Origin: a virus | Taxonomy: Duplodnaviria > Caudoviricetes | Length of the DNA stretch: 64,000 nt | IMG/VR virus record: IMGVR_UViG_3300009873_000020 | Coordinates: 1,387-65,386 of that record | Reading direction: 5' to 3' (one strand) | Shown: piece after piece, positions 4,528 through 50,168 of the stretch | Numbering within the stretch: the first letter of the stretch is position 1 | Layout of the letters: each line of letters opens with the position of its first letter | Program-made: the position numbers and the translations under genes | The notes under the pieces: model-generated | The model's database searches: none | What the model was told of the DNA's origin: nothing | What the model saw: the letters and a program-made list of their open reading frames with translations, nothing else

Positions 4528-5853
4528 ATGGATTTAATACAACTACGCACAAAATGGGCCGAAACCCTGGAGGAGATGCGAAAGATCGCCGACCGGGCCA
4601 AGGCGGAACAGAGGCTATTAACCGAGGAGGAAGAGAAACGCTACGGAGAATTGGAGCAGCTCGAGAAGGACTACTCGGCGAACATCGAGCGGCTCGAAAG
4701 GCTCGAACAGCTCGAGGCCAAGCGGAACGAGCCCGTCAACAAGCCGGTGGACCTGAAGGTCACCCGCGAGGACAAGCATGATGACCAGGGCGAGCCGAGG
4801 GTCTTCCGTTCGCTCGGCGAGCAGCTTATGGCGGTTCGCGACGCGGCTTTATACCCGAGGGCGAATCACTCCAAGCTGGACGAGTGCCAAAAGATCATGC
4901 GTGCCATTTCGGGTATGAATGAGACCGTAGCAGCCGACGGTGGAATACTGGTCGAAAAGCAGTTCGTCTCGGGCCTGATGGACCGGGCCGAAGAGGAGTC
5001 GAAGCTTCTCCCTCTGGTTCGGCGCATCCCCGTCAGCGCTAACTCAAACGGCATCAAGTTTTACGGGGTCGATGAAACCTCAAGGGTGGACGGATCTCGC
5101 TGGGGCGGCGTTCAGGCCTACTGGGAAGGCGAAGGCGATCAGTACATCGCGTCCAAGCCGAAACTAACCCCACAATCGATGACGCTCAGGAAGCTGACCG
5201 GCCTTTGCTACGTGACAGAGGAGCTGCTGGAGGATTCGACCGCGCTTGAGGCGTTTATCCGCATGGCGTTCGGGGACGAGTTCGGCTTTAAAATCGACTA
5301 CGCCATCCTACACGGCACCGGAGGTGGACAGCCCAAGGGCGTGTTCAAGGCGGAATCGCTGGTCGTGGTTGCCAAGGAGTCCGGGCAGGCGGCTGACACC
5401 ATCGTCCTGAACAACTTGACCAAAATGCGGGCAAGGCTCTGGGCTCGAAGCCGTTCTCGGGCCGTGTGGCTGATGAACGCCGACGTGGAGCCGCAGCTTC
5501 TGGGCCTTAACCTGTCGGTTGGCAATAACGCTTACCCCGTGTTTTTACCGGCCACCGGCATTTCTGGCGCCCAGTACGACACCCTCTTCGGGCGCCCGAT
5601 GCTCCCCATCGAGCAGATGGAAACCTTGGGCGATCAGGGGGACATCCTGCTGTGGGATCCGGAAATGTACATGGTAATCGATAAGGGTGGATTAAAAGCT
5701 GCTACTTCGATTCACGTTCGGTTCTTGTTTGACGAAGTGGCATACAAGTTCACCATGAGGTTGGACGGACAGCCGCTCGTGTCAACTGCGCTTACTCCTT
5801 TCAAGGGAACTGCGACAGTAAGCCCATACGTAACGCTTGCAGCTAGAGCTTAG
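4528..5853 (+). CDS. Major capsid protein, HK97 fold with N-terminal coiled-coil delta domain
   Basis: Charged N-terminal scaffold; DGGILV, VTEELLEDS, GTGGGQPKG, LFGRP, MRLDGQP; position after protease. Confidence 0.95.
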   Translation: MDLIQLRTKWAETLEEMRKIADRAKAEQRLLTEEEEKRYGELEQLEKDYSANIERLERLEQLEAKRNEPVNKPVDLKVTREDKHDDQGEPRVFRSLGEQLMAVRDAALYPRANHSKLDECQKIMRAISGMNETVAADGGILVEKQFVSGLMDRAEEESKLLPLVRRIPVSANSNGIKFYGVDETSRVDGSRWGGVQAYWEGEGDQYIASKPKLTPQSMTLRKLTGLCYVTEELLEDSTALEAFIRMAFGDEFGFKIDYAILHGTGGGQPKGVFKAESLVVVAKESGQAADTIVLNNLTKMRARLWARSRSRAVWLMNADVEPQLLGLNLSVGNNAYPVFLPATGISGAQYDTLFGRPMLPIEQMETLGDQGDILLWDPEMYMVIDKGGLKAATSIHVRFLFDEVAYKFTMRLDGQPLVSTALTPFKGTATVSPYVTLAARA

Positions 5854-34687: not shown

Positions 34688-35470
34688 ATGACAATCGACC
34701 TAAACAACTTCAACGCAGTAACGAACGAACACGGACGGCACCCGGAAAAGACTAGCGAAAAATACCGCTTCATCCCGACCACCAGAGCATTAACGGTGCT
34801 GGCTGATTACGGCTGGTTTCCCTCCATCGTAAGACAAGCAAACGTATTGGACCCGGCAAATCGGGGCTATCAGCGCCACTTGATCCGCTTGAGAAACCGC
34901 GAGTTTGAACGGAGCTTTGCGGCCAAAGGAGCACAGCCAGAGATTACGCTGGTTAATTCTCACCGGGGCGATAGCTCGCACTGGTTTTATTCCGGCATGA
35001 CGGAGCTTGTCTGCATGAACGCTCTTTTAGCCGATGGCACGTCCGCCATGGTGCAGCGTGTGCCGCATATCGGCTACACGGATCAGAAAGTGGAGGCGGC
35101 TATCAAGAGCGTTATCAACTATTTCGAGCCCGCCTTTGCTGCCCGTGAACGGTGGATGAGTCTGACGATTCAGGAAGCGGATCGGATCGCCTACGCTGAG
35201 GCGGCGGCCTTACTCCGGTGGGGAAAGGAGGACGGGCCGAAAGTGGAGCCACGGGACTTATTGACGCTTCGGCACCCGGAGCAGGCGGCCCCGACACTCT
35301 GGAACACCTACAACACGGTGCAGGAGGCGATCATCAAGGGCGGCACGCCGCTGGTGCTGTCAAACGGAACGCGCAGCACGTCGCGCCGGATGAATAATCT
35401 ACGCGACGAGGTGCGGTTCAATCAAAAGCTCTGGCAGTTGGCCGAAAGCCTGGAAGCCCGAGTGCAGTAA
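34688..35470 (+). CDS. DUF932/DUF945-family protein
   Basis: SEKY.FIPT, H.IRLR, L.NSH.G.SS, C.N.L, LW.T.N.VQE.II.GG, N..LW.LA. Confidence 0.88.
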   Translation: MTIDLNNFNAVTNEHGRHPEKTSEKYRFIPTTRALTVLADYGWFPSIVRQANVLDPANRGYQRHLIRLRNREFERSFAAKGAQPEITLVNSHRGDSSHWFYSGMTELVCMNALLADGTSAMVQRVPHIGYTDQKVEAAIKSVINYFEPAFAARERWMSLTIQEADRIAYAEAAALLRWGKEDGPKVEPRDLLTLRHPEQAAPTLWNTYNTVQEAIIKGGTPLVLSNGTRSTSRRMNNLRDEVRFNQKLWQLAESLEARVQ

Positions 35471-35566
35471 GAAGAGATTTTCAGAACGAAACCACCTGCC
35501 GGGGAGTTGGCCCGGCAGTTGGTCAGCGGTAGTTGGTCCGGCAGTTAGTCGAGTTGCTCGAAAAAA

Positions 35567-35622: not shown

Positions 35623-36153
35623 CTACTTCCTGCCGGTGAACTCATCCAGCGCCTCTAGGTAGTCCTTCAAACGCTCCACTCCGCCAGCGGCCTTGGCGAG
35701 CCTGTCGAGACGTTCCACCAGATCTTTCGCGTCGTCCAGCGTCAGATCCTCCCTGTTCAGGACTCCCTGGACCTCCCGCATACCGTTGATGGTCAGAGGG
35801 GCATCTTCGCTGTTGTTCACGGACGCGGCCCCGCTGCTGGTGGATCTGGGCTTTCGGGGGGTGCCGCTCTCGCCCTTGAACTTCGTGTTGTAGCTGCTGA
35901 CAGTCGGGACGCTCGTTGGGATGCCGGTTCGTCGCTCGTACTCCTTGGCCACTTCAGTAAAGTTCAGCTCAGGCATCTCGGTAAAGATGGCGTTCATCAC
36001 ATCGACGTTGACCTTGTTGCGTATCCTCTTACCATCGGGCTCGTTCACTGAGGTTGCCTCCACGACAGCGGGCGGCGGTGATTCTTGATCGAGCTGCCGC
36101 ACGGGCTCCTCGAACGGCTCAGGCTCCGGTTCCGCTTTTTTCTTCCTCGCCAC
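35623..36153 (-). CDS. Hypothetical protein
   Basis: SD GGAGG, GTG 36153. Confidence 0.65.
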   Translation of the reverse strand: MARKKKAEPEPEPFEEPVRQLDQESPPPAVVEATSVNEPDGKRIRNKVNVDVMNAIFTEMPELNFTEVAKEYERRTGIPTSVPTVSSYNTKFKGESGTPRKPRSTSSGAASVNNSEDAPLTINGMREVQGVLNREDLTLDDAKDLVERLDRLAKAAGGVERLKDYLEALDEFTGRK

Positions 36154-36229
36154 GGCGCACCTCCAGGCGGTAGGGTGTGGGAACGTACCTTTATGTACTT
36201 TAGCCTGTGTCGCCAAGAAGAGAAGATCA

Positions 36230-36817
36230 ATGACGCCAAAATCTTTACTTTACCTCTTGGCCTGGCAGGTAAAGCTTGCGACTTACGAGCAAGCAGCAAG
36301 CATCCTGAAGCGCTCGGTCGATGCGACACGAAAGCTTGCCTACCGGCTCGAGCGCGAGGGAAAGGTGCAGCTTAACACCGTCATGGCCTACCCGCTCCCA
36401 AAACTTTCCGGCCCGCTATTCACCTGGCGGCCAGGGCGACGGGTGACGGACCAGGAGATCGAGGCCGTGGTGTCGCTCCTCAAAAACCGCTTCGCGGGCA
36501 AGCGCCTCATCCCGACCCGCGTGATCCAGGCGACGGAACGGGGCGCGGCGACAGTCGGCGGCTGCACAAAAACGGTACGGCTTGCCGAAGTGCCGCACGA
36601 TCTCCTCCTGCCGCAAGCCATGACGGTGATGGCTCGGGCCGAAGAGTTGATCGGCGAGGCCGTCTTGAAGCGGGACATGGGGTTTGCGGGCGAGCTGGTC
36701 GATGCCCTGCGCGGCAACGTGGCGGTGGAGATCGGCGGCACGAGTTACCGGGCCGACGACATCCGGGCGCTCATGGATTGGTGTACAGCAGCGCGTTACG
36801 GCCTGGAAATCTGGTAG
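36230..36817 (+). CDS. Winged-helix protein, possibly replication-relaxation family
   Basis: N-terminal wHTH pattern (LAT.EQ...ATRKLA.RL...G); central HD; C-terminal DAL...VAVEIGG nuclease-like. Confidence 0.45.
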   Translation: MTPKSLLYLLAWQVKLATYEQAASILKRSVDATRKLAYRLEREGKVQLNTVMAYPLPKLSGPLFTWRPGRRVTDQEIEAVVSLLKNRFAGKRLIPTRVIQATERGAATVGGCTKTVRLAEVPHDLLLPQAMTVMARAEELIGEAVLKRDMGFAGELVDALRGNVAVEIGGTSYRADDIRALMDWCTAARYGLEIW

Positions 36818-36851
36818 CCGGGCCGATAAGATAGGGGGCGGGAGGCCGTGT

Positions 36852-37307
36852 ATGGCAAAGAAACCAGATCGTGACCAGCAGGCGCCCGAGCGGTTTGAGT
36901 CGTCCTTGGACGATCTCGACCTTGGGGATCTAAGCCTGGCGGACGACACCCCGCCGCCCGATCCTAAGACGGACTTTTCGGCCTTCAAGGCGGAAATCAA
37001 CTGGGTCAGAGAGGATTTGCTTCAGGCCCACCAACCCGTTCGAACCTACTTCCAAGACTACCTGAACATGCTGGAGGGCACGAAATACCCCACCCCCGAG
37101 GAAAACGTCGAGTTCGTTCACATCGTCCAGGAGCTTGCCGAAACATTCGGCGTGGCGCTTTATTATCCACTGGAGGACGGCTCACGAGTTGAGGTCAAAG
37201 TTCGCTTCACCCCCGACAACCGCTTTCAGTTCCGCACAGCCGGCCCCAATCGTCAGTTCGTCGCTGTCTGCCCCACCTGGCCACTTCTGTACGCCAGTTC
37301 ACATTAG
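36852..37307 (+). CDS. Hypothetical protein
   Basis: SD GGAGG, ATG 36852. Confidence 0.6.
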   Translation: MAKKPDRDQQAPERFESSLDDLDLGDLSLADDTPPPDPKTDFSAFKAEINWVREDLLQAHQPVRTYFQDYLNMLEGTKYPTPEENVEFVHIVQELAETFGVALYYPLEDGSRVEVKVRFTPDNRFQFRTAGPNRQFVAVCPTWPLLYASSH

Positions 37308-37494
37308 TTTAATTTTCCGTTTTTCCCGATTTTCCTCTTGAAGCCCCCCTCCCGCCAAGGGTAGTCTTTACTGGTCCCACCGTGGGACCAGTAACCGCCC
37401 GCCCCACGTAACTCCTGTTCCGCAGTCCGTTTCCGCATTCCGTACCTCACACCCGCTCACGGTGCGCGCCCGCGAGAAAGGAGAAGGTCCGCTC

Positions 37495-38241
37495 ATGGTC
37501 AAACGCATCCCGCTGGCAGAGGCGCTCGGCTACCTGGCGCTCGATACGGACGCCCGCCAGTACCGCAACGAGGCCGCCATCGTGCGGCTCATGAACCTGC
37601 TGGAGCGCCACGGACAGCTCGAAACCGTCAAGCTCTGCGATGCACTGAAGGAGGTGGTGGACGGCACCTCGCGGCTGCTCGCCATGCAGCGGCTCGGCTG
37701 GACGAGTGTGCTGGTCGAGTTCGTCGAGGTGAAGGACCAGGCCGACAAGCTCACCAAGGGAGTTGTGGTCAACACCTCCCAGACCAAACTCTCGCCGCTC
37801 GACGTGGGCCGGGCCGCGCATCTGAAACACCAGCAGGGGATGCCGCTCGACAAGATCGCCGCCGAGTTCGGCCTGAACGCGAGCGACGTGTCGAAGCTCG
37901 TCACGATCTGGAACGGATTCCCCGAGGAGCACCGGGGGCTCCTGCACGACGGCACTCTCGGGATCGGCGTGGCTTACGAGATCAGCCGCCTGTCGCTCCG
38001 GCCCGAACAGCAAAACGAGCTGATCGAGGCCGCCAAGGCGGGCATGAAGGGGGCCGAGATCACCCAGGAGGTCAAGCGGCGTCTGGCCAAGGTCAAGCCC
38101 GCCAAAAAGCCGGCGGAACAGGAACGCTTCGTCATCAAGGACAAGGGGATCGTGATCACCTTCTCCGTCGCCCACAACATCACGCTCGAACACCTCCTCC
38201 TGGTCGTCACGAGCGAACTAAAGGAGCGCTACAAAAAATGA
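37495..38241 (+). CDS. ParB-like protein
   Basis: HGQLE.V, VVDG.SRL.A...LG, N.....LSPLD..RA, HTH-like IA.EFG...S.VS. Confidence 0.8.
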   Translation: MVKRIPLAEALGYLALDTDARQYRNEAAIVRLMNLLERHGQLETVKLCDALKEVVDGTSRLLAMQRLGWTSVLVEFVEVKDQADKLTKGVVVNTSQTKLSPLDVGRAAHLKHQQGMPLDKIAAEFGLNASDVSKLVTIWNGFPEEHRGLLHDGTLGIGVAYEISRLSLRPEQQNELIEAAKAGMKGAEITQEVKRRLAKVKPAKKPAEQERFVIKDKGIVITFSVAHNITLEHLLLVVTSELKERYKK

Positions 38242-38873
38242 CGCTCAAGGAGCAGCTCATCGACGCCCTGGTGAGAAACACCGTCATGACCAACGCCCAG
38301 TGTGACAAGGTGCTGGAGCGCTCCAGCCACAACACGCGGCAAGCGCTCCTGAAGGACGGCGCGATCAGCTACATGCCCTACGGCCCAAAGAGGCGCTCGG
38401 TGGTGTTTTTGACCAACGCCGCCCTCACCGCCCGAGGACTCCCGCCCCGAGAGCGCCCGTTCGGGCCGCAGAGCTTGCACGCGCTGTTGGGCCGCTCGGC
38501 CTTTGCCCTGAACCGCCACCCGGAACGCCAGCAGGTGACAAACGCCGTCCTTGAGCAAGCGATCAAGACTGGGCTCGGCGGCGGCGCTCACGTCCTGGAT
38601 CGCCAGGAGAAGCGTCAAGTGGTGTGGCGCGTCATCGTCCCGGCCAGCACCACGACCGTCAAGGCCATCCTGAAGAAACTCCACCGCGTCGTCGGGGCGG
38701 CAAAAAAAACGCCGCTCAAAGCGTGGCTGGAGGCGCGCACCTACGGCCTGGCCGTCATGCTGTCCAACGAGCACAAGGCCGCCGCGCTCGGGCGGGCCGT
38801 GAGCCGAAAGAGCCGCAAATACCCGCCCCTGAACTCTCAAGTCTCCATCCTCATCGAGTACGCCGACTTCTAA
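38238..38873 (+). CDS. Hypothetical winged-helix-like protein
   Basis: ATGA coupling; basic. Confidence 0.55.
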   Translation: MTLKEQLIDALVRNTVMTNAQCDKVLERSSHNTRQALLKDGAISYMPYGPKRRSVVFLTNAALTARGLPPRERPFGPQSLHALLGRSAFALNRHPERQQVTNAVLEQAIKTGLGGGAHVLDRQEKRQVVWRVIVPASTTTVKAILKKLHRVVGAAKKTPLKAWLEARTYGLAVMLSNEHKAAALGRAVSRKSRKYPPLNSQVSILIEYADF

Positions 38874-38890
38874 CCAAAGGAGCGACTACC

Positions 38891-40603
38891 ATGTACCGCG
38901 ACAAGCCCCCGGAAAGGCCGATCAACTGGGCCAAGGTCGGCCAGGACATCGCCACGATCATCGGCTTCACCCTCTGGCTCACCTGGCAGATCATCGTCTT
39001 TTTCTGGGCTCAGAGCATTCTCAACAACTCCGACCCTCCCCCGATTGAAAAGGAGGTGCAGATGCGATTCGACTTCGACCGGGCCGAAGCCCTGGTCCGA
39101 AACTCCGACCGGCTGCTCATCGGACAGTCCTGGGAGGACGGCTCCCCCGCCGTGCTGCCCACGGAACTGCTGGAGAACGGGCACGGCCTGGTGAGCGGCA
39201 TGACCGGCACCGGCAAGACGGCGAAAGTGCTGATGCCGCTTGCCTGCCAGTTCATCCGGGCCGACACGATCGGGCAATGTGAAGTCGGGCCGGTGGTGTT
39301 TTTCGACTTCAAGGCCAAGGACAACGAGACGCGGGCAACGCTTCTGCTGGAGGCCAAGCGCGCCGGCAAGGGTTTTGACGAAATCAACACCGACAGCCGC
39401 TACGAGTCGGCCTGCTGGAACCCCATTGAAGAGATGGGGGAGATGACCGTCTCGGAGCACAGCGCTTGCTTCCGTGAGAGTGCGGGGCTCGTCTACCCTT
39501 TCGGGTACGGATCGACCTACTTCACGCAGCGCCTGGCCGAGCTGTTCGAGACGCACCTGGAGCGCTGCGAACAAAAGGGGATCTACCCGAGGGATCTCAA
39601 GGAGCAGGCGGACCTTATCGAGAGTATGACGCCCCTGGAGGAGCGCCGCGATGCCCAGAGCATCATCGACACGCTGCGGATTCTTGGCCGCTATCCCCAA
39701 TTCTCCGCCGCACCGGAGGGGGCCAACAAAGTCTCGATCAAGCAAGTCATCGAAGAAAAGCGCGTGGTACTGTTTCGTACCCCAAACGGCACCACGTCCC
39801 TTTCCGGCCAGATTTTCATGCGCTGGTTCCTCAACATCCTCTCCCGCCACATGGAGTGGTACAACGCGACCAGGCCGGTCAAGACGGTGGCGCTGGCCGT
39901 GATCGACGAGGCCAACATCCTGATCAACGCGGGCCACGGCGATCTGGCTGCAGCGCTTCAAACCATGCGCTCAAGCGGCGTGAGTCTGCTGTTTTCGACC
40001 CAGGCGTTTGCAAGCGAGGCGTTTCACGACCCGCGCCTCTGGGCCGAGGTGCTCTACGACGTGGGGCTAAAGGTGCACCTTCGCCCCTCCCCGGACCTGG
40101 CCGAGCTTCTGAGCAAGGAGGGCGGCACGCACCGCGAGTGGCGGCAAACCTCCACGACGCTCCGAGACGGCCCCGGTTTTTGGAAGGGCTTTCTCGACAA
40201 CCTCTTTTGGTGGGTTGACCAGGAAGCCCATGTGCCGGACTACTCCATCGACACCCGGTGGACCGAAACGCACTCCGAGGAGGAGCTGCCAAACCTCGAC
40301 CCAAACGACATCCGAAAGGCCGCCAGCCGTGGCGCGGGTGTCGTTAGCAGCTACGCCCTCCCCAATGGCATCCCCCGCATCCTGTACCCAACGTTCGTGT
40401 GCGATAGAGCGGAGTTTCAGCGCCGCCGCCTGATGACGCCGCCTCTGGCCCCGCCCCGCCCGAAAAACGTCCCGCCCGCCCCGAGCGTGAAGGAGATCGA
40501 TACGGCGCTGGAGAAACTCGCCGAAAAACAAAGCGCCATGCTGGAGCAACTGGCTGAAGCTCCCGCCCCGAAGCAAAAGAAGAAGGGAGGAAAGAAGCAA
40601 TGA
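38891..40603 (+). CDS. Type IV coupling protein-like ATPase (TraD/VirD4-like)
   Basis: N-terminal TM; Walker A GMTGTGKT; FFDFK; WNP; Walker B VIDEA; RS.GV.L...TQ. Confidence 0.8.
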   Translation: MYRDKPPERPINWAKVGQDIATIIGFTLWLTWQIIVFFWAQSILNNSDPPPIEKEVQMRFDFDRAEALVRNSDRLLIGQSWEDGSPAVLPTELLENGHGLVSGMTGTGKTAKVLMPLACQFIRADTIGQCEVGPVVFFDFKAKDNETRATLLLEAKRAGKGFDEINTDSRYESACWNPIEEMGEMTVSEHSACFRESAGLVYPFGYGSTYFTQRLAELFETHLERCEQKGIYPRDLKEQADLIESMTPLEERRDAQSIIDTLRILGRYPQFSAAPEGANKVSIKQVIEEKRVVLFRTPNGTTSLSGQIFMRWFLNILSRHMEWYNATRPVKTVALAVIDEANILINAGHGDLAAALQTMRSSGVSLLFSTQAFASEAFHDPRLWAEVLYDVGLKVHLRPSPDLAELLSKEGGTHREWRQTSTTLRDGPGFWKGFLDNLFWWVDQEAHVPDYSIDTRWTETHSEEELPNLDPNDIRKAASRGAGVVSSYALPNGIPRILYPTFVCDRAEFQRRRLMTPPLAPPRPKNVPPAPSVKEIDTALEKLAEKQSAMLEQLAEAPAPKQKKKGGKKQ

Positions 40604-41124
40604 ATTGCCGCCACTGTGCTGAGCCGGTGTTTCTCAAGCCCGACCACCGGGAGGGCTTTACCTGCCCGCGCTGCGGGAAAACGCAAGAACCCCCGCCGCC
40701 CGAGGGGTCCAGGGACGACGGCGCGGGGTTGTTCGAGATTCTCATCACGCCGCGCCTCATCCTCGCGGCCGCACTGTCGCTCGTCCTCATGGCCGTCGGC
40801 ATCGTCACCGGGAACGACGGCTGGATCTGCGCCGGGGCGATGGTGCCGTTTTTCCTGATGGGACTTCCGCTTTCGTTTTCCATCGACAACGCCACCGCTT
40901 GCGCCTGGCTGCGCTACGCCGTCCTCCAGCCGCTTGTGTTTGAGGCGGGGCGCTACTGCCAGATTGCCGCCGTGGGCCGCACCTACAGCAATTTCGGCGA
41001 CGGGCTTTTGCTTGGCCTCTATGCGGCAAGCCTCATGGCGGTCGGAGTGGTCTCGGGGCATCTTGGACTCTTTCTCGCAAACTGGCAGGAGAGACGCCGT
41101 GAACGAACACAAGACCACGACTGA
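40600..41124 (+). CDS. Membrane protein with N-terminal Zn ribbon
   Basis: CRHC/CPRC then 3-4 hydrophobic segments. Confidence 0.7.
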   Translation: MNCRHCAEPVFLKPDHREGFTCPRCGKTQEPPPPEGSRDDGAGLFEILITPRLILAAALSLVLMAVGIVTGNDGWICAGAMVPFFLMGLPLSFSIDNATACAWLRYAVLQPLVFEAGRYCQIAAVGRTYSNFGDGLLLGLYAASLMAVGVVSGHLGLFLANWQERRRERTQDHD

Positions 41125-41281
41125 GGAAGTGGTGGAGATGGCGCTGCTCCACGCCCAAGACCACTTCAAGCGGCGGCTCAAGAAGGAGGACAAGAACTTT
41201 CTTCGCCGCCTGATCGGGGCCAGCATCGAGGCCGCAACGGTATTCACGACTAACGAGGCCGTCAAGCCGAGCGACAACTAG
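41099..41281 (+). CDS. Hypothetical protein
   Basis: SD GGAGAG, GTG 41099. Confidence 0.5.
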   Translation: MNEHKTTTEEVVEMALLHAQDHFKRRLKKEDKNFLRRLIGASIEAATVFTTNEAVKPSDN

Positions 41282-41295
41282 GAGGACTCAGAGCC

Positions 41296-41493
41296 ATGCC
41301 AAACTTCGCCTATGTCACAAACGATCTGCGCGGCAAGCTCGCCCACCTCATTCGGCCCTACGTGGCTGATGTCGATGTGGTACTGAGCCAGGTCTGCCCG
41401 CTGTTGGACAACGAGATCCACAAGCTCGTTAACCGCGAGGTGGCGAAAGTCACCGACATTCCACGCGGGTGGAACGACAACGCGGAGAGTTAG
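41296..41493 (+). CDS. Hypothetical protein
   Basis: SD GGAGG. Confidence 0.55.
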   Translation: MPNFAYVTNDLRGKLAHLIRPYVADVDVVLSQVCPLLDNEIHKLVNREVAKVTDIPRGWNDNAES

Positions 41494-41605
41494 GAGCCTT
41501 GCGGCACGGATGCCCTTTAAGCCCCGGCTGAACGGCAGCTTAACTGGTTCGACTCCAGCGGGGCTTTATCTGGTTTTTCACCACCATCACCTCGGAGACG
41601 CGAAC

Positions 41606-41731
41606 ATGAAGACGTGGCTCAAGATCATTTTCTTCCCCATCTGGATAGCCGAGCGCTACTGGCACGCCAAGGGGAAGGTGAAAAACGACGGGCCGAAGCG
41701 CAAGCCCTTTGGCTTCAGCGAACGCAAGTAG
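41606..41731 (+). CDS. Small hypothetical membrane-anchored peptide
   Basis: SD GGAG; MKTWLKIIFFPIW. Confidence 0.45.
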   Translation: MKTWLKIIFFPIWIAERYWHAKGKVKNDGPKRKPFGFSERK

Positions 41732-41846
41732 GCCCGCTGGAGGCCGGGGCTCTTCATTCTGGACCTCAGTGAGTGCGGCCCGGCCAGCAGAAACGATGAG
41801 ATCGGCGTTTTGGGCGACTGATGAGGCCACGTTCAAGGAGACCACG

Positions 41847-42074
41847 ATGCAAGAGTTCAAGATCCGAGTCTACCGAGACCGCGCGCGAAAGACAAACGTC
41901 CAGGAAACCACCGTCATCACCCTCTGGGCCAAGAACCAAAAGGAGGCAAACCGCACGGCGATCAAGATCGCCGACGCCGAGGGGCACACCTGTGACTGGC
42001 AGCGCGTGGAGGAGGGGTGCTGGGAGTCAGAGGAGACCTTCGACTTCAATGTAGACATTGAGCACCTGCCCTGA
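41847..42074 (+). CDS. Hypothetical protein
   Basis: SD AAGGAG, ATG 41847. Confidence 0.55.
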   Translation: MQEFKIRVYRDRARKTNVQETTVITLWAKNQKEANRTAIKIADAEGHTCDWQRVEEGCWESEETFDFNVDIEHLP

Positions 42075-42083
42075 ACGTTCCTA

Positions 42084-42135
42084 AAGCCCCGGCGTGAAGG
42101 TCACGCGCTTTACCCGTTCGATTCGGGCGGGGCTT
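42084..42135 (+). ncRNA. tRNA-like three-way junction lacking an anticodon arm
   Basis: AAGCCCCG/CGGGGCTT outer stem; GCGTGA/TCACGC hairpin; CCCG-TTCGATT-CGGG T-arm. Confidence 0.4.
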
Positions 42136-42215
42136 ACTCAAAAGTCAAGGAGAATAAATGCCTCAACCAAGGGGTATTTATTCTCCTTGACAACTCGCAA
42201 GAAACAGGCAGTGCC

Positions 42216-42461
42216 ATGCAAAAGCTCCTGACGGTCAAGGAGGCGGCTACCGAGATGCGCCTTTCGGCCGGCACGGTCTACAAGCTGTGCGAGTCGAAGA
42301 AACTTCGCCACCAGCGCTGCGGCGAGAACCAGGGCAAGATCCTCATCCCGCTCGATGCGATTGAGGAGTACTTGGGCAAAACGACGGTGGGGGTAGAGGA
42401 GGCTACCCCCACGAGGAAAAAGCAGCCCCAGGTCAAGCTTGAGAACCTGAAGCTTTCTTGA
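42216..42461 (+). CDS. xis: Excisionase-like HTH protein
   Basis: LLTVKEAA..M.LS..TVY.L.....L...R.G; converges on and overlaps integrase 3' end. Confidence 0.85.
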   Translation: MQKLLTVKEAATEMRLSAGTVYKLCESKKLRHQRCGENQGKILIPLDAIEEYLGKTTVGVEEATPTRKKQPQVKLENLKLS

Positions 42462-43506
42462 GGGCAGCTTCGAGGTGAGCATCGGCCTTGTTCAAATGCT
42501 GGTACACCGTCGCTATCATCTGGCCGTTACTGTGTCCCATCAGCTCCGCGACCGAGAGGTGATCCGCCCCGCTTTCCAGCATCTTCTCCGCGAAGCCGTG
42601 GCGGAAATCATACGCCGCCCACGCCTTGCCGAGCTTCTTCTTGAGGCGCTGGAAGCGGCACACGATGGCCTGGGCCTTCCAGGGGGTGCCGTCCGTGTTG
42701 ACAAACAGCTTCCCCTCCCGCGTGGCCAGACGCTTGACGATCTCTATCGCCCGGTCGTTGAGCCGGATGATGCGCCACCGCTTTCTCCCCTTGGCCTCGG
42801 CGGGCGGTATCTCGATCCTTCGAGCGTCGAGCTTGACGTGCCTCGCCTCGATGTGGCGAGCCTCCTGCGGCCTGCACCCCGTCTCCCAGGAGAAGGTGAG
42901 CAGATCGCGGAAAGGCTGGTCCTTGACCTTGGAGAGGATGGCGGCGAAGTCCTCCGGCGTGACCGGGTTTTCCCGCCGCGAGGCCCGAGGCTTTTCGATA
43001 TGCCGGATCGGGTTCGTCTCGATGTAGCCGAGCTTGAAGGCCCAGTTGTAAGGACGCTGAACGTGGATGATGGCGTTCCTGCGGCGCGTCGGTCCCCACT
43101 GGGGGTGAGCCTCCAGCCATTCGAGGATGTGGTGCGGTCGAAGCTCGGCGGCGGGCAGGAGGGCTTTTTCCCCGAGGTGCGTGATGAAGCCCTGGATGAA
43201 GTCGTGGTAGCCCCGGTGCGTCAGGGGCTCCCGGTTATTCCGGCACCAGGAGAGGAATTTGTCGTACAGCACCACCACCGTCAGGCCGGTCGTCGCGGCG
43301 ACTTTTTTCTTGGGCTCAAGCCGCGCCGCCGCCATCGTTGCGTGAAACGCCTGCACGATGGAAGCGGGAGCGTTCCACTTCCCTTTTATTTTTTTCGGGG
43401 CCGGGGCGTCGGCGGGATGCTCGCCCAGGAAATGCCGCCGCCCGTCCTTGTTGACGTACCACCCCTGCCGTTCTTCCCAGAACCAGGGAGACGCGATGCG
43501 GGCCAT
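42433..43506 (-). CDS. int: Tyrosine integrase
   Basis: ETGCRPQE (R), K, YDFRHGFA (HxxR), LMGH, VYQH catalytic residues. Confidence 0.95.
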   Translation of the reverse strand: MARIASPWFWEERQGWYVNKDGRRHFLGEHPADAPAPKKIKGKWNAPASIVQAFHATMAAARLEPKKKVAATTGLTVVVLYDKFLSWCRNNREPLTHRGYHDFIQGFITHLGEKALLPAAELRPHHILEWLEAHPQWGPTRRRNAIIHVQRPYNWAFKLGYIETNPIRHIEKPRASRRENPVTPEDFAAILSKVKDQPFRDLLTFSWETGCRPQEARHIEARHVKLDARRIEIPPAEAKGRKRWRIIRLNDRAIEIVKRLATREGKLFVNTDGTPWKAQAIVCRFQRLKKKLGKAWAAYDFRHGFAEKMLESGADHLSVAELMGHSNGQMIATVYQHLNKADAHLEAALKKASGSQA

Positions 43507-43648
43507 GTGAAAAACCCTCCAGCCTGAGCCATGTTGATGCACCACGGCGGCCTTCGGGTTGCCCGCCCCTGATCGGTTGCAGCCGGTCAGGGGCTTTTCA
43601 TTCTGTCCCGGAATTCCGTACCCAAAACTATCGAATCGTCATAAGTCA

Positions 43649-43695
43649 GTGGACAGAGCCGGGATCGAACCGGCGACCTAAGGATTTTCAGTCCT
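43649..43695 (-). other. attP core: 3' half of tRNA-Phe(GAA)
   Basis: Reverse complement AGGACTGAAAATCCTTAGGTCGCCGGTTCGATCCCGGCTCTGTCCAC; no 5' half; next to int. Confidence 0.85.
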
Positions 43696-43792
43696 GACCG
43701 CTCCTTCAGCCATCCACGGTCTTAAAGTCTTATGGGAACAGAACTTCAGGTGACAAACGAGCACCCTGTTTCTTGCCGCCACTTTGCATATT

Positions 43793-44335
43793 TTAGGGCA
43801 TTTTCTGGCGTTTTCCAGCGGATTCTGTACCGGGTACAGAATGGTTGTTCAGCACCGCCCATTCCCCGCGCAGCTCCAGACATTTGGCGTCATACGCGGC
43901 AGCGGCGGCCTCTTCGCCCGCGAAGTAGCCGAGGTAGTGACGCCTGCCTTCATGGAGGATGCTCGCCCGGAACTTGCCATGCCGCTTGTCAAAAAAGACG
44001 CCTCGATGTCGAGAGGTTTTGTTCTGGGCTTGATGCCGTCTCTTGTTCCATGAGTTCTGGCCCGAGGTCGCAACTCTCAGATTGATTCGCCGACAATCGA
44101 GCGAATCACCATTAATGTGATCACCTTTGTGCTCTTTGCCGATGCCGAGTAAGAGCTTGTGCAAAAAGATCCGCTGAGCCCCTGAAGTCATGGGGACGGT
44201 GGTAATGGCGTAGAACTTTTTCTTCGACTTGAGCGCACACCAGCGAAATGCTTTTACGAGAGCGTAATCGTCGTCGTCAATCTGCGCGTACTGTCCTTGG
44301 GTCAAGCTAATTTCCACGAACCGACAGTAGCACAA
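43793..44335 (-). CDS. HNH-AP2 homing endonuclease
   Basis: I.LTQG..A.IDD.D, DHINGD.LD.RR.NLR.AT..QN, S..RGV, YLG.F..EE.AA.AYD. Confidence 0.92.
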   Translation of the reverse strand: MCYCRFVEISLTQGQYAQIDDDDYALVKAFRWCALKSKKKFYAITTVPMTSGAQRIFLHKLLLGIGKEHKGDHINGDSLDCRRINLRVATSGQNSWNKRRHQAQNKTSRHRGVFFDKRHGKFRASILHEGRRHYLGYFAGEEAAAAAYDAKCLELRGEWAVLNNHSVPGTESAGKRQKMP

Positions 44336-44368: not shown

Positions 44369-44791
44369 GGTAGTGTCCTAATTTGAACTCAACCGGGGAC
44401 GAGCCTTGATGGCTGCTGCCAAAGGTGATATTGTGTAATACAACAAATAGATGGACGCAACGAGATTCGAACCCGCATCTCATGAATGTGAAGGCCATGC
44501 GGTTTACCGAGTTAACCTATGCGCCCATGTTATTTGCTTCTCGTAAAACGGGACTTGGACTGGCATGCAGGTTATTTTTCGAGGGTTACGCTGCATGCCA
44601 GTCCTTCTTTAGTCCCGCTACAGCAATGTACTAGCGGTGCTGAATCAATCACACATAATCTTGGCTTGATTAGGCATGGCTTAGTAAGGCACGGTTCGGA
44701 CTGGCTAGGCATGGGTGGGGCTTTCAACTCACAAGTTGAAAGCCCTCGTTTTTTATCTAAACGAAAGTTGATTTGAAATTAGGACACTCCC
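44369..44791. mobile_element. 423-bp MITE-like element, 25-bp TIRs, 8-bp target duplication CTCGTGCA, carries a tRNA gene
   Basis: Left GGTAGTGTCCTAATTTGAACTCAAC (44369-44393); right-end reverse complement GGGAGTGTCCTAATTTCAAATCAAC (44791-44767); 22/25 identical; CTCGTGCA at 44361-44368 and 44792-44799. Confidence 0.8.
44452..44526 (-). tRNA. tRNA, most likely Val(CAC), with 9-nt anticodon loop; no encoded CCA
   Basis: GGGCGCA/TGCGTCC acceptor, GGTT/AACC D stem, CATGG/TCATG anticodon stem, loop CCTTCACAT, GCGGG-TTCGAAT-CTCGT T arm, A discriminator. Confidence 0.75.
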
Positions 44792-44794
44792 CTC

Positions 44795-45364
44795 GTGCAG
44801 CCCACCGCCCAAGACATCAAGAACGCTCAAGTCCGGCAGGCCATCGCCGACCGCCAGGCCGAAGAGTACGGCCAGTGCCTGAGATGGGCCTTGGGCGCCT
44901 TCGGGCCCGGCTGGCTCCCGAGCGGCAGACACTTTCTCTTGGACAAGGCGGTTGAAGACGAGTGCCGTAGGACCGGCGACAAGCCTACCCCAGCCGCCAC
45001 GGTCTACACGGTCAAGAACGCCGGAGGGCGCAAGCGGCACTTCACGGTGACGGACGGACGGGTCAGGGAGGTGGCGAGCTACCAGGAAGGTTTCGGCCCC
45101 ATGCTGAACGAGCCCCACCCCACCATGAGGATCGAGATCAGGGGCCAAGAGGTCGCGCCGCACAGGTATAGCCTCTGCTGGGCTCCCATCGAGCTGTACC
45201 ACCCCAAGAGCGCAGATGAGCTAGCGGCCTTACGGGAGAGCCGGGAGGAGAAGAAGGCCGAGAAGGAGCAGGCTAAGTTCAAGGAGGAGAATCCGCTTCT
45301 TGCGTGGGCTGAGCTAGAGGGGCCTGCGTACAATACAGACGAGCCGCCGTCTGACCAGAGCTAG
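44795..45364 (+). CDS. Hypothetical protein
   Basis: 189-aa ORF, GC-rich coding style; GTG start lies inside the right TSD. Confidence 0.7.
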   Translation: MQPTAQDIKNAQVRQAIADRQAEEYGQCLRWALGAFGPGWLPSGRHFLLDKAVEDECRRTGDKPTPAATVYTVKNAGGRKRHFTVTDGRVREVASYQEGFGPMLNEPHPTMRIEIRGQEVAPHRYSLCWAPIELYHPKSADELAALRESREEKKAEKEQAKFKEENPLLAWAELEGPAYNTDEPPSDQS

Positions 45365-48987: not shown

Positions 48988-49740
48988 ATGGCAACAAGCA
49001 AGCTTGTGCTCCATCGAGGAGCCGTGACTGTGAGTGAGGAGGAGCTACGGACCTACAAGGCCCCGCAGCCGGTTGGCCGTTGGGTCCCGCTGGATCACAG
49101 CCGGGTTCTGGACATGGTGCGCGGGACGTTGGTGGACTGCGGCTACAACATTCGCGCTCTCAAGCTCGGAGTCAGTCGCGAAGGACACCGGCTGTTCGGC
49201 ACGATGGACCTGGACACCAGCATCGCGGTCGGAGTGACGCTCGCAGTGGGGTTCAGGTCATCAACAGACCGCAGCTTTCCACTTGCTATGTGCTGCGGCT
49301 CGCATGTTTTCTGCTGCGACAATATGGCATTCAGGAGCGAAATCGCCATCAAGGCCAAGCATACTCTCCACGGAGAGTCTCGCTTTCAGGCTGGGATCGC
49401 GAACGCCGTCGCTCAACTGGGTCAGTTCAAGATCGAGGAAGAGCAGAACGTCCGAGGAATGCAGGAACTTCAGCTCAAGGACGAGCAGGCAGAGTCACTC
49501 ATTCTACGTGCGTTTGAACGTGGAATTCTGAACACGCACCAGCTCCCCGGAGTGATCCGCGAGTGGCGCACTCCCAGCTACCCCGAGTTCGAGCCGAGAA
49601 ATATGTGGTCTCTTTTTAACGCTTGCACCACGATCCTCGGCAGCGTCCAGCGCTCAAATCCGCAGAAATTTTCTGTGGTCACGATGCGCTTGAATTCGCT
49701 CCTGTCGCCGAAGGATCCCCAACTCCAACAGGCGGTGTAG
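48988..49740 (+). CDS. Second DUF932-family protein
   Basis: W.P..H, LFG...L, GFR.S.D.SF, G..VF.CDNMAF, W.LFNA.T. Confidence 0.8.
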   Translation: MATSKLVLHRGAVTVSEEELRTYKAPQPVGRWVPLDHSRVLDMVRGTLVDCGYNIRALKLGVSREGHRLFGTMDLDTSIAVGVTLAVGFRSSTDRSFPLAMCCGSHVFCCDNMAFRSEIAIKAKHTLHGESRFQAGIANAVAQLGQFKIEEEQNVRGMQELQLKDEQAESLILRAFERGILNTHQLPGVIREWRTPSYPEFEPRNMWSLFNACTTILGSVQRSNPQKFSVVTMRLNSLLSPKDPQLQQAV

Positions 49741-49784
49741 TCCACCATGTCCCGCTCTCTCAAGAAAGGATCGGTGTTCGCGTC

Positions 49785-50168
49785 ATGGGCAAAGCAAACG
49801 GCAGGAAGAAGGCACAGGCCCCTGCCCCTGCGCCACAACAGCAACAACAGCGTGACAGGCCGGTGCACGAGGTTCGGCGTGGGAACATCCGGGCCTCGAT
49901 CTGGCTCAACCACCACGCCGAGAAAGGCGAGTGGTTCAACGTGACCACCAGCCGGGCCTACAAGGACGCTCAGGGCAACTGGAAGAACGCCACGAGCTAC
50001 GGCAAGGACGACCTCCTGGCCCTCGGTGAAGTGTCGCGCCTGGCCTACCACTGGATCGAGCTGGAGCAGCAGCGGCGATTTCTCGAATCGCGTCAGCAGC
50101 AGCAGCACGAGCGGCAGCCGGGAGAGGATGATCTGGAGCCGCACGCAGAGGAGCCCATCCCGTTCTAG
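49785..50168 (+). CDS. Small PC4/SSB-like DNA-binding protein
   Basis: PVHEVR.G.IRASIW.N....G.WFNVT.SR.YKD..G.WK....Y..DDLL.L. Confidence 0.6.
   Translation: MGKANGRKKAQAPAPAPQQQQQRDRPVHEVRRGNIRASIWLNHHAEKGEWFNVTTSRAYKDAQGNWKNATSYGKDDLLALGEVSRLAYHWIELEQQRRFLESRQQQQHERQPGEDDLEPHAEEPIPF

Follow-up and report, generated by a model that had tools for sequence, protein, structure and literature searches.

A relaxase-like protein pair and a coupling-protein-like ATPase adjoin the sole integration module of a temperate planctomycete phage

It is usual to regard phages as one kind of vehicle and conjugative or mobilisable elements as another. The known systems closest to the locus described here are CloDF13, with the MOBC relaxase MobC and its own type IV coupling protein (T4CP) MobB, and the streptococcal class-8 integrative and mobilisable elements (IMEs), compact units in which VirD4, a MOBC relaxase of family PF13814 and an integrase stand together (PMC5357655). 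PF13814 is the MOBC relaxase family (PMC5357655), and MOBC relaxases are PD-(D/E)xK enzymes with an N-terminal winged helix-turn-helix (wHTH) domain (PMC12857230). Related genes have also been reported in phages: Pathria et al. described in 2012 a 'DNA translocation operon' carried by the Bacillus phage 0305phi8-36, comprising orf200 for a CloDF13 MobC-like relaxase (gp200), orf201 for a VirD4-like ATPase, and membrane proteins, with homologues in SPO1 as well as in lysogenic phages, in which the operon has recombination genes beside it (PMC3357382). Here we describe a block of this general kind in the IMG/VR virus record IMGVR_UViG_3300009873_000020, in which a relaxase-like pair and a coupling-type ATPase are joined to the integrase and attP of a temperate phage of Planctomycetota. 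The window, meaning the whole stretch of DNA that was analysed, is 64,000 nt long and corresponds to bases 1387–65386 of the linear, 65,386-bp record.

An earlier note on this DNA, made from its letters, had drawn attention to the block as a conjugative-mobilisation module embedded in a tailed phage. The block is real; its newness is narrower than the note implied, as operons of a MobC-like relaxase and a VirD4-like ATPase have been known in Bacillus phages since 2012 (PMC3357382), and what is added here is the union of such genes with the sole Int and attP of a temperate planctomycete phage. With its sole lysogeny module physically linked to a cassette of a relaxase pair and a coupling ATPase, this complete temperate phage offers a concrete test case for a prophage that also moves by a plasmid-like route, or for some other role of such cassettes, a question that dates from the 2012 report.

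The record has a CheckV completeness of 100% and, on its gene content, is a complete temperate siphovirus-like tailed phage of Gemmataceae-type Planctomycetota. All parts of the block named in the earlier note were recovered at 36.2–43.7 kb, with coordinates and strands corrected. Gene starts were chosen by ribosome-binding sites. The protein genes on which the comparison depends, and the attachment site, are the following:

36230–36817 (+): wH1, a MarR-like winged helix with a C-terminal domain
36852–37307 (+): 151-aa open reading frame (ORF) with no family match, not found in related island loci
37495–38241 (+): ParB/Noc-like protein, N-terminal ParB domain plus helix-turn-helix (PHROG ParB, 2e-8)
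38238–38873 (+): wH2, a winged helix with a PD-(D/E)xK-fold domain
38891–40603 (+): T4CP-like ATPase of 570 aa, with one predicted transmembrane helix, Walker A and Walker B
40600–41124 (+): zinc-ribbon (CxxC...CxxC) protein with 3–4 transmembrane helices, its start overlapping the ATPase stop codon
42216–42461 (+): Xis candidate, HTH_17 (AlpA/Xis-type; PF12728, 3e-11)
42433–43506 (−): tyrosine integrase, Int (PF00589, 1e-22)
43650–43695 (−): attP core of 46 nt, just upstream of int, matching in reverse complement the 3′ part of a tRNA

Int is the sole tyrosine recombinase of the record, and no serine recombinase was found in it. The attP core is present as a single copy in the 64-kb window (0 of 100 shuffles matched) and is identical at 46 of 46 nt to the 3′ end of the Gemmataceae tRNA-Phe(GAA), a stretch that begins in the anticodon stem and runs as far as the discriminator base; it scores 28.3 bits on the Rfam tRNA model, just below the cut-off of 29. 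A 45-nt core gave 29 exact matches in species-representative genomes, of which 27 were in Planctomycetota, mostly Gemmataceae, and an alignment of the matching genome stretches showed that the 5′ half of tRNA-Phe is absent from the phage. Judged by this identity, the geometry of the core is that of a classical attP and the host lineage is Gemmataceae, a lineage with few known phages. The attP arrangement around the phage's only integrase, the choice of tRNA-Phe as the target and the Planctomycetota affinity of Int and its neighbours, all put forward in the earlier note, agree with the data, the gene relatives as well as the host being Planctomycetota. Arm-like repeats around the core are short and putative.

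As in an IME, the phage has its own integrase, excisionase and att site. A discrete IME, bounded by att repeats and separate from its carrier, is not present: a single att core was found in the window, and what attP delimits is the phage as a whole. As in the integration module of a temperate phage, the core is the 3′ end of a host tRNA, and a homologous Int is found at that tRNA together with a flanking repeat. This homologue lies in a Planctomycetaceae metagenome-assembled genome (MAG), G001, where an Int 68–70% identical and an Xis 41% identical to those of the phage stand beside tRNA-Phe in the same convergent layout, and the core is repeated on the same strand at a distance of 70.6 kb, showing that an integrase of this type does integrate at tRNA-Phe. 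The 70-kb element has only three genes in common with the phage, namely Int, Xis and one more, and no ATPase homologue was found in it. Sharing Int and Xis and little else, it indicates that integration modules of this type are swapped between unrelated elements.

The G001 genome has the tRNA-Phe att core at six places. Besides the pair 70.6 kb apart (C2:7069 and C2:77675), it stands at both ends of the 45.9-kb contig C12 (C12:1-44 and C12:45853-45893) and forms a further pair 4.2 kb apart (C7:79461 and C7:83714). From these positions, tRNA-Phe in G001 looks like an integration hot spot occupied by several elements.

The two winged-helix proteins, proposed as relaxase candidates in the earlier note, have the Replic_Relax (MOBC relaxase) fold according to profile comparison and predicted structure, and are distantly related to each other. 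BLAST detects no similarity between wH1 and wH2, while their family profiles align (77%, E 2e-5) in the N-terminal 100 columns. Against a reference alignment built from 12 Gemmataceae proteins of the canonical Replic_Relax type, hhalign matched the wH1 family at 87.5% (E 3.6e-6) over 124 columns, including the H and E motifs, and the wH2 family at 95.5% (E 1.5e-8) over 74 columns; these matches are moderate and cover part of the protein length. A search of the ESM Atlas, taken as a lead, agrees with hhalign: wH1 reached TM 0.84–0.87 to 'Replication-relaxation' clusters and wH2 reached TM 0.74 to one made up to 99% of PF13814, the clusters matched by the two proteins being mostly from Planctomycetota. 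In BFVD, wH1 gave weak full-length structural matches to Bacillus phage proteins of 274–283 aa. The canonical PF13814 hits in Gemmataceae lie at other places than the hits of the wH1 family, and hidden Markov models (HMMs) for MOBP, MOBQ, MOBF, MOBV and MOBT gave no match in the phage. In tblastn searches, wH1 matched nothing among GenBank phages and PLSDB plasmids.

The AlphaFold2 model of wH1 has a pLDDT of 91.7 and that of wH2 a pLDDT of 78. The wHTH domain of wH1 superposes on MarR-family chains with Z 9.6–10.2 and a root-mean-square deviation of 1.3–2.2 Å over 63–72 residues; for the wHTH domain of wH2, Z is 5.1–5.6. In the C-terminal part of wH1 the order of elements is helix-strand-helix-strand-strand-helix-strand, and in 21 sequences of the family the H-D-L, E, P-D-A, G and Y positions vary little or not at all (H 21/21, D 20/21, E 21/21, D of PDA 21/21). 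The PD-(D/E)xK evidence for wH1 consists of this secondary-structure order and these motifs; its Foldseek and VIA lists were filled by wHTH proteins. The C-terminal domain of wH2 (residues 76–211) matched PD-(D/E)xK nucleases almost exclusively, among them CdiA-CT (4g6v, Z 9.2), PaqCI (Z 8.3) and XisH (Z 7.5), as well as FokI, SdaI, NucS and HamA. No conserved polar or catalytic residues were found in the wH2 family, so that, of the two candidates, only wH1, which keeps H, D, E and D, qualifies on the active site. On these residues, wH1, a candidate relaxase of divergent MOBC-like type, is likely the catalytic subunit, with wH2 probably its non-catalytic paralogue or accessory partner.

The ATPase carries Walker A GMTGTGKT at residues 103–110 and Walker B LAVIDE at 335–340, and all eight invariant columns of its family are present. 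A Kyte–Doolittle scan places its N-terminal anchor in one hydrophobic segment, residues 20–40; canonical T4CPs usually have two N-terminal membrane segments. An exhaustive HMMER search recovered 287 remote homologues at 24–33% identity. T4CP domains were found in 36 of the 41 best of them: TrwB_AAD_bind (PF10412) in 36, TraG-D_C (PF12696) in 31 and T4SS-DNA_transf (PF02534) in 19. Compared with the PDB, the family profile ranked DotL/IcmO (6.9e-16), DptH (7.4e-9) and TrwB (2e-6) above FtsK (1e-5) and HerA (4e-5). At the family level, through these relatives, the ATPase belongs by sequence with the coupling proteins and not with FtsK/HerA, in keeping with the earlier note; an FtsK/HerA-like motor lacking a relaxase partner, which the note had named as the outcome that would count against it, is not what the block contains.

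Simpler searches returned little. With tblastn, no homologue of the ATPase was detected among 50,697 GenBank phages or 72,556 plasmids (PLSDB); a word-indexed homologue search with the ATPase or wH1 returned the query itself only; and the ATPase as a single query had matches in 3 of 301 Planctomycetota genomes, whereas the five genomes with Int homologues gave none. A megablast of the whole block found no match. The zinc-ribbon membrane protein matched no family in Pfam, NCBIfam, PHROGs or PADLOC, and is a possible membrane partner of the ATPase.

The trio of wH1, wH2 and ATPase is shared with planctomycete islands. On metagenomic contigs with ATPase homologues, wH1-like and wH2-like genes lie immediately upstream, and plasmid-like contigs with the trio carry ParA/ParB, ArdC-N, RPA, toxin-antitoxin, restriction-modification and integrase genes; no mating-pore genes are visible on the trio-bearing contigs. 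The wH1 profile matched 10 of the 101 Gemmataceae genomes sampled. In all nine Gemmataceae loci fetched (L077–L085), genes resembling wH1, wH2 and a T4CP are adjacent, and in those inspected in detail (L077 and L081) they follow the order of the phage, wH1, wH2, ATPase. HMM E-values in the islands range from 1e-25 to 1e-47 for wH1, 1e-8 to 1e-23 for wH2 and 1e-65 to 1e-122 for the ATPase. Two of the loci, L081 at a tRNA-Val and L082 at a tRNA-Pro, also carry an Int 30–32% identical to that of the phage, in the window's layout and beside the tRNA gene; of the two, L081 has a detectable Xis, and no att repeat was found within the 18–20 kb fetched for either.

Alongside these shared features of gene order, HMM family and an Int by a tRNA, the phage differs from the islands in having full virion and replication modules and in carrying the ParB-like and 151-aa genes between wH1 and wH2. 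No virion genes common to the island loci and the phage were found, and Pfam scans recognised no phage structural families in ten other island ORFs. The genomes that carry the island module have no detectable VirB4. We found no paper on this module in the literature. The phage is in this way linked to a widespread planctomycete island family that holds transfer genes where no usual mating channel was detected.

PHROG scans of the rest of the window located the C-terminal part of the large terminase, the portal and the major head protein, together with a major tail protein, a tape measure and a J-like central fibre. The virion genes with assigned coordinates and the replication module are:

1–897: large terminase (TerL), C-terminal part
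915–2678: portal
4528–5853: major head protein
56–63 kb: replication module, comprising a DUF2800/PD-(D/E)xK nuclease, an Enc34-type SSB, an SNF2 helicase and a PrimPol-D5 primase-helicase

The block is surrounded by tailed-phage genes and is therefore internal to such a genome, each end of which is more than 20 kb distant from it. No repeat common to both ends of the record was found. In IMG/VR, the relatives of the portal protein are distant only (at most 38% identical), and a search for loci related to the ATPase or to the neighbouring DUF932 gene gave no relative.

Like CloDF13 and the class-8 IMEs, the phage combines a compact relaxase candidate of wHTH and PD-(D/E)xK type with a T4CP-like ATPase, an integrase and an excisionase, and the element is without mating-pore genes. 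Unlike them, it has the relaxase-like gene duplicated into a conserved pair, one member of which lacks catalytic residues; its wH proteins and ATPase fall below Pfam thresholds; its integrase is a tyrosine and not a serine recombinase; and its attP unit is a whole 65-kb tailed phage. With 0305phi8-36 it shares a phage-borne MOBC-like wHTH protein adjoining a coupling-type ATPase and membrane proteins. That phage, however, is a lytic jumbo myovirus, whereas the present one is temperate, siphovirus-like and associated with another host phylum; its ATPase has its own transmembrane anchor, and the cassette is joined to the sole Int and attP. In direct comparisons, gp200 of 0305phi8-36 matched PF13814 at 6e-5, the ATPase profile gave an insignificant result against gp201, and tblastn of gp200 against plasmids found no match.

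We propose that the lysogeny region forms one contiguous cassette, of the kind that would constitute the core of planctomycete integrative islands. It would hold a MOBC-type (Replic_Relax-like) relaxase pair, in which wH1 is probably catalytic and wH2 probably a non-catalytic partner, then the membrane-anchored T4CP-like ATPase with a putatively coupled zinc-ribbon membrane protein, and then Xis, Int and attP(tRNA-Phe), the last three serving as the phage's own predicted integration system at the host tRNA-Phe. In the composition and geometry of this cassette, taken alone, our confidence is high. The genes present, their folds and homology, the synteny with the islands, the identity of attP and the host lineage are observed, while nicking, DNA export and any cell-to-cell transfer are inferred. 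The transfer proteins would most likely attach to the element in its excised or replicating form, nick it at a cis site close by and pass the DNA to the membrane ATPase, giving the phage genome a second, virion-independent exit. This exit might be mobilisation through the type IV channel of a helper, or through a channel as yet unknown. The families involved, the membrane anchor of the ATPase, the position of the trio beside Int in both Int-bearing loci, the company of ArdC and ParA/ParB on plasmid-like contigs and the precedent of VirD4-MOBC-integrase IMEs (PMC5357655) all speak for transfer. For the explanation as a whole, including the transfer role, we consider the case evenly balanced.

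A number of results weigh against it. At the level of single proteins, the ATPase falls below every curated T4CP threshold (PF02534, PF10412, PF12696, TIGR03743), scoring alone 16.8 bits with TraG-D_C against a cut-off of 22 and 22.8 bits with SXT_TraD against a cut-off of 366, and it resembles the defence ATPases DptH (7e-9) and PADLOC mad8 (6e-8). PF13814 has no match on the phage at E ≤ 10, and a single family member was hit by it at E 0.018; wH1 and wH2 matched no family in Pfam, NCBIfam, PHROGs or PADLOC; and the wH1 profile detected neither gp200 nor any CloDF13 ORF. No protein of the window passes the curated cut-off of a T4CP or relaxase family when scored by itself. The phage transfer genes are 24–30% identical to the island versions, which does not support recent capture. 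No oriT or nic site was identified in the phage, where only candidate repeats and hairpins are present, and deletion of the 0305phi8-36 operon gave no laboratory phenotype (PMC3357382).

The missing channel counts on the same side. VirB4 was not found in the phage, in line with the lack of mating-pair-formation genes reported in the earlier note. In a census made with one model (PF03135) on genomes that are MAGs, VirB4 was present in 2 of 101 Gemmataceae genomes and in none of the 10 with the wH1 family. As VirB4 is nearly absent, and absent from the wH1-bearing genomes, a helper channel is not evident. For the phage-IME hybrid proposed in the earlier note, the composition and geometry stand, and conjugative spread is conjectural, neither an oriT nor a helper T4SS having been identified. 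In the same sample of 101, canonical Replic_Relax (PF13814) scored above its cut-off in 13 genomes, the wH1 family in 10 and VirB4 in 2, so that relaxase-like genes far outnumber detectable mating-pore genes.

How the cassette is used admits several other explanations. It could serve the phage inside the cell, as a nicking pair that initiates rolling-circle replication, in episomal maintenance with the ParB-like protein, or as a membrane DNA pump in exclusion or uptake, and we regard such a role as somewhat unlikely and still deserving serious weight. It would account for the ParB-like gene embedded in the cassette, for a Pfam family named for replication as well as relaxation, for the near absence of VirB4 from the sampled host family and the trio's presence in islands of genomes where VirB4 was not found, and for the laboratory dispensability of the Bacillus phage operon (PMC3357382). 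A full set of replication genes (PrimPol-D5 helicase, SNF2, SSB, DUF2800 nuclease) is, however, already present in the phage, a membrane-anchored T4CP-like ATPase points to export, and the island versions do without the ParB-like gene, which hence lies outside the core. A more ambitious form of the transfer explanation, in which the phage has two exits and leaves either as virions or as naked DNA through its own MOBC-type relaxase pair and coupling-type ATPase, with a new channel or no dedicated one, seems to us doubtful; it takes its shape from a host phylum almost without the classical VirB4 channel, in which the island-shared module would have to use a new channel or none of its own. That the trio is instead a defence or exclusion system carried on mobile elements, a motor plus nuclease like DptFGH or MADS, is in our estimate highly improbable. 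PADLOC does report mad8 (5.8e-8) and DndH (2.6e-3) on the ATPase, the family profile reaches DptH at 7.4e-9, and in its PD-(D/E)xK fold wH2 is similar to restriction enzymes and to Hachiman HamA as well; against this, T4CP families outscore DptH, both wHTH proteins align to Replic_Relax, and the trio, standing beside Int in both Int-bearing loci and on contigs with ArdC-N and ParA/ParB, looks like backbone and not variable cargo.

The origin of the block has also to be weighed, since it could be foreign to the phage, either a decayed planctomycete integrative island inserted into it or a phage-island chimera of the assembly. Near-identical layouts do occur in islands that share no structural genes with the phage, the Int of a 70-kb element with only three genes in common with the phage is 70% identical to the phage Int, the GC content of the block (0.60–0.63) is above that of its immediate flanks, and no close phage relatives were found for a comparison of synteny. 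Yet the same GC content equals that of the structural module, the block has one att core with no flanking direct repeat, and a second integrase is lacking. On its right flank, the gene at 44795–45364 has a 57% identical counterpart in G001, and that at 49620–50165 is 46–49% identical to genes in L080 and L081; right-flank genes with planctomycete relatives favour a native block. A chimera would in addition need two false junctions, each more than 20 kb from either contig end. We consider a foreign block improbable.

Several smaller features lie in or beside the cassette:

35505–35560: five direct repeats of ~9 bp, (G/C/T)AGTTGGTC-like, with ~12-bp spacing, at the left edge of the block
35623–36216 (−): divergent ORF of at most 197 aa, start uncertain, with no family match
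37369–37395: inverted repeat TTACTGGTCCCA/TGGGACCAGTAA, 12 bp and perfect, in the spacer ahead of the ParB-like gene, with TTCCG repeats after it
41519–41566 (+): tRNA-like three-way hairpin, copy 1, with a T-loop-like hairpin
42084–42135 (+): tRNA-like three-way hairpin, copy 2, its stems covarying with copy 1
between the zinc-ribbon gene and Xis: three small ORFs

The repeats at 35505–35560 are a candidate protein-binding array for relaxase binding, parS or an arm site. The inverted repeat at 37369–37395 has a z of −3.1 and is a candidate hairpin, nic site or operator. The 10-mer ATTCCGTACC occurs both at 37437–37446, in the spacer before the ParB-like gene, and at 43613–43622, in the attP region. 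Support for the ParB-like assignment is weak and consistent, with NCBIfam noc/parB at 1e-4 to 6e-4 and Noc in the PDB at 6e-3. The minus-strand ORF at 35623–36216 is possibly a regulator. Each of the two three-way elements, ~50 nt long, stands directly 3′ of a small gene and folds as a junction closed by an 8-bp stem, with one hairpin and a second one of 4 bp whose GUUCGAyU loop is T-loop-like; where the two copies differ in their inner stems, the changes compensate one another in both stems, and the stem pattern occurs twice in the window against 0.03 expected.

At least five genes for HNH-type endonucleases lie between modules of the phage (2671–3447, 33833–34510, 43793–44335, 47965–48624 and 63324–63827), including one HNH-AP2 and one NUMOD4-HNH, and homing endonucleases may have had a part in shaping the borders between modules, that on the right of the block included. 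Two DUF932 paralogues are present, one directly left of the block (34688–35470) and the other at 48988–49740; a weak DUF932 gene, below the Pfam cut-off at E 5e-4, is found in a related Gemmataceae island (L081:13951-15147). An ordinarily shaped 75-nt tRNA with anticodon UCA lies at 44452–44526 (−), within 44369–44791, and is flanked by 25-bp inverted repeats that are 88% complementary; it scores 49.5 bits on the Rfam tRNA model and is labelled 'SeC' by ARAGORN. By its anticodon it would read UGA, and it looks like an opal suppressor and not a true selenocysteine tRNA. It is a different gene from the tRNA-Phe fragment of attP.

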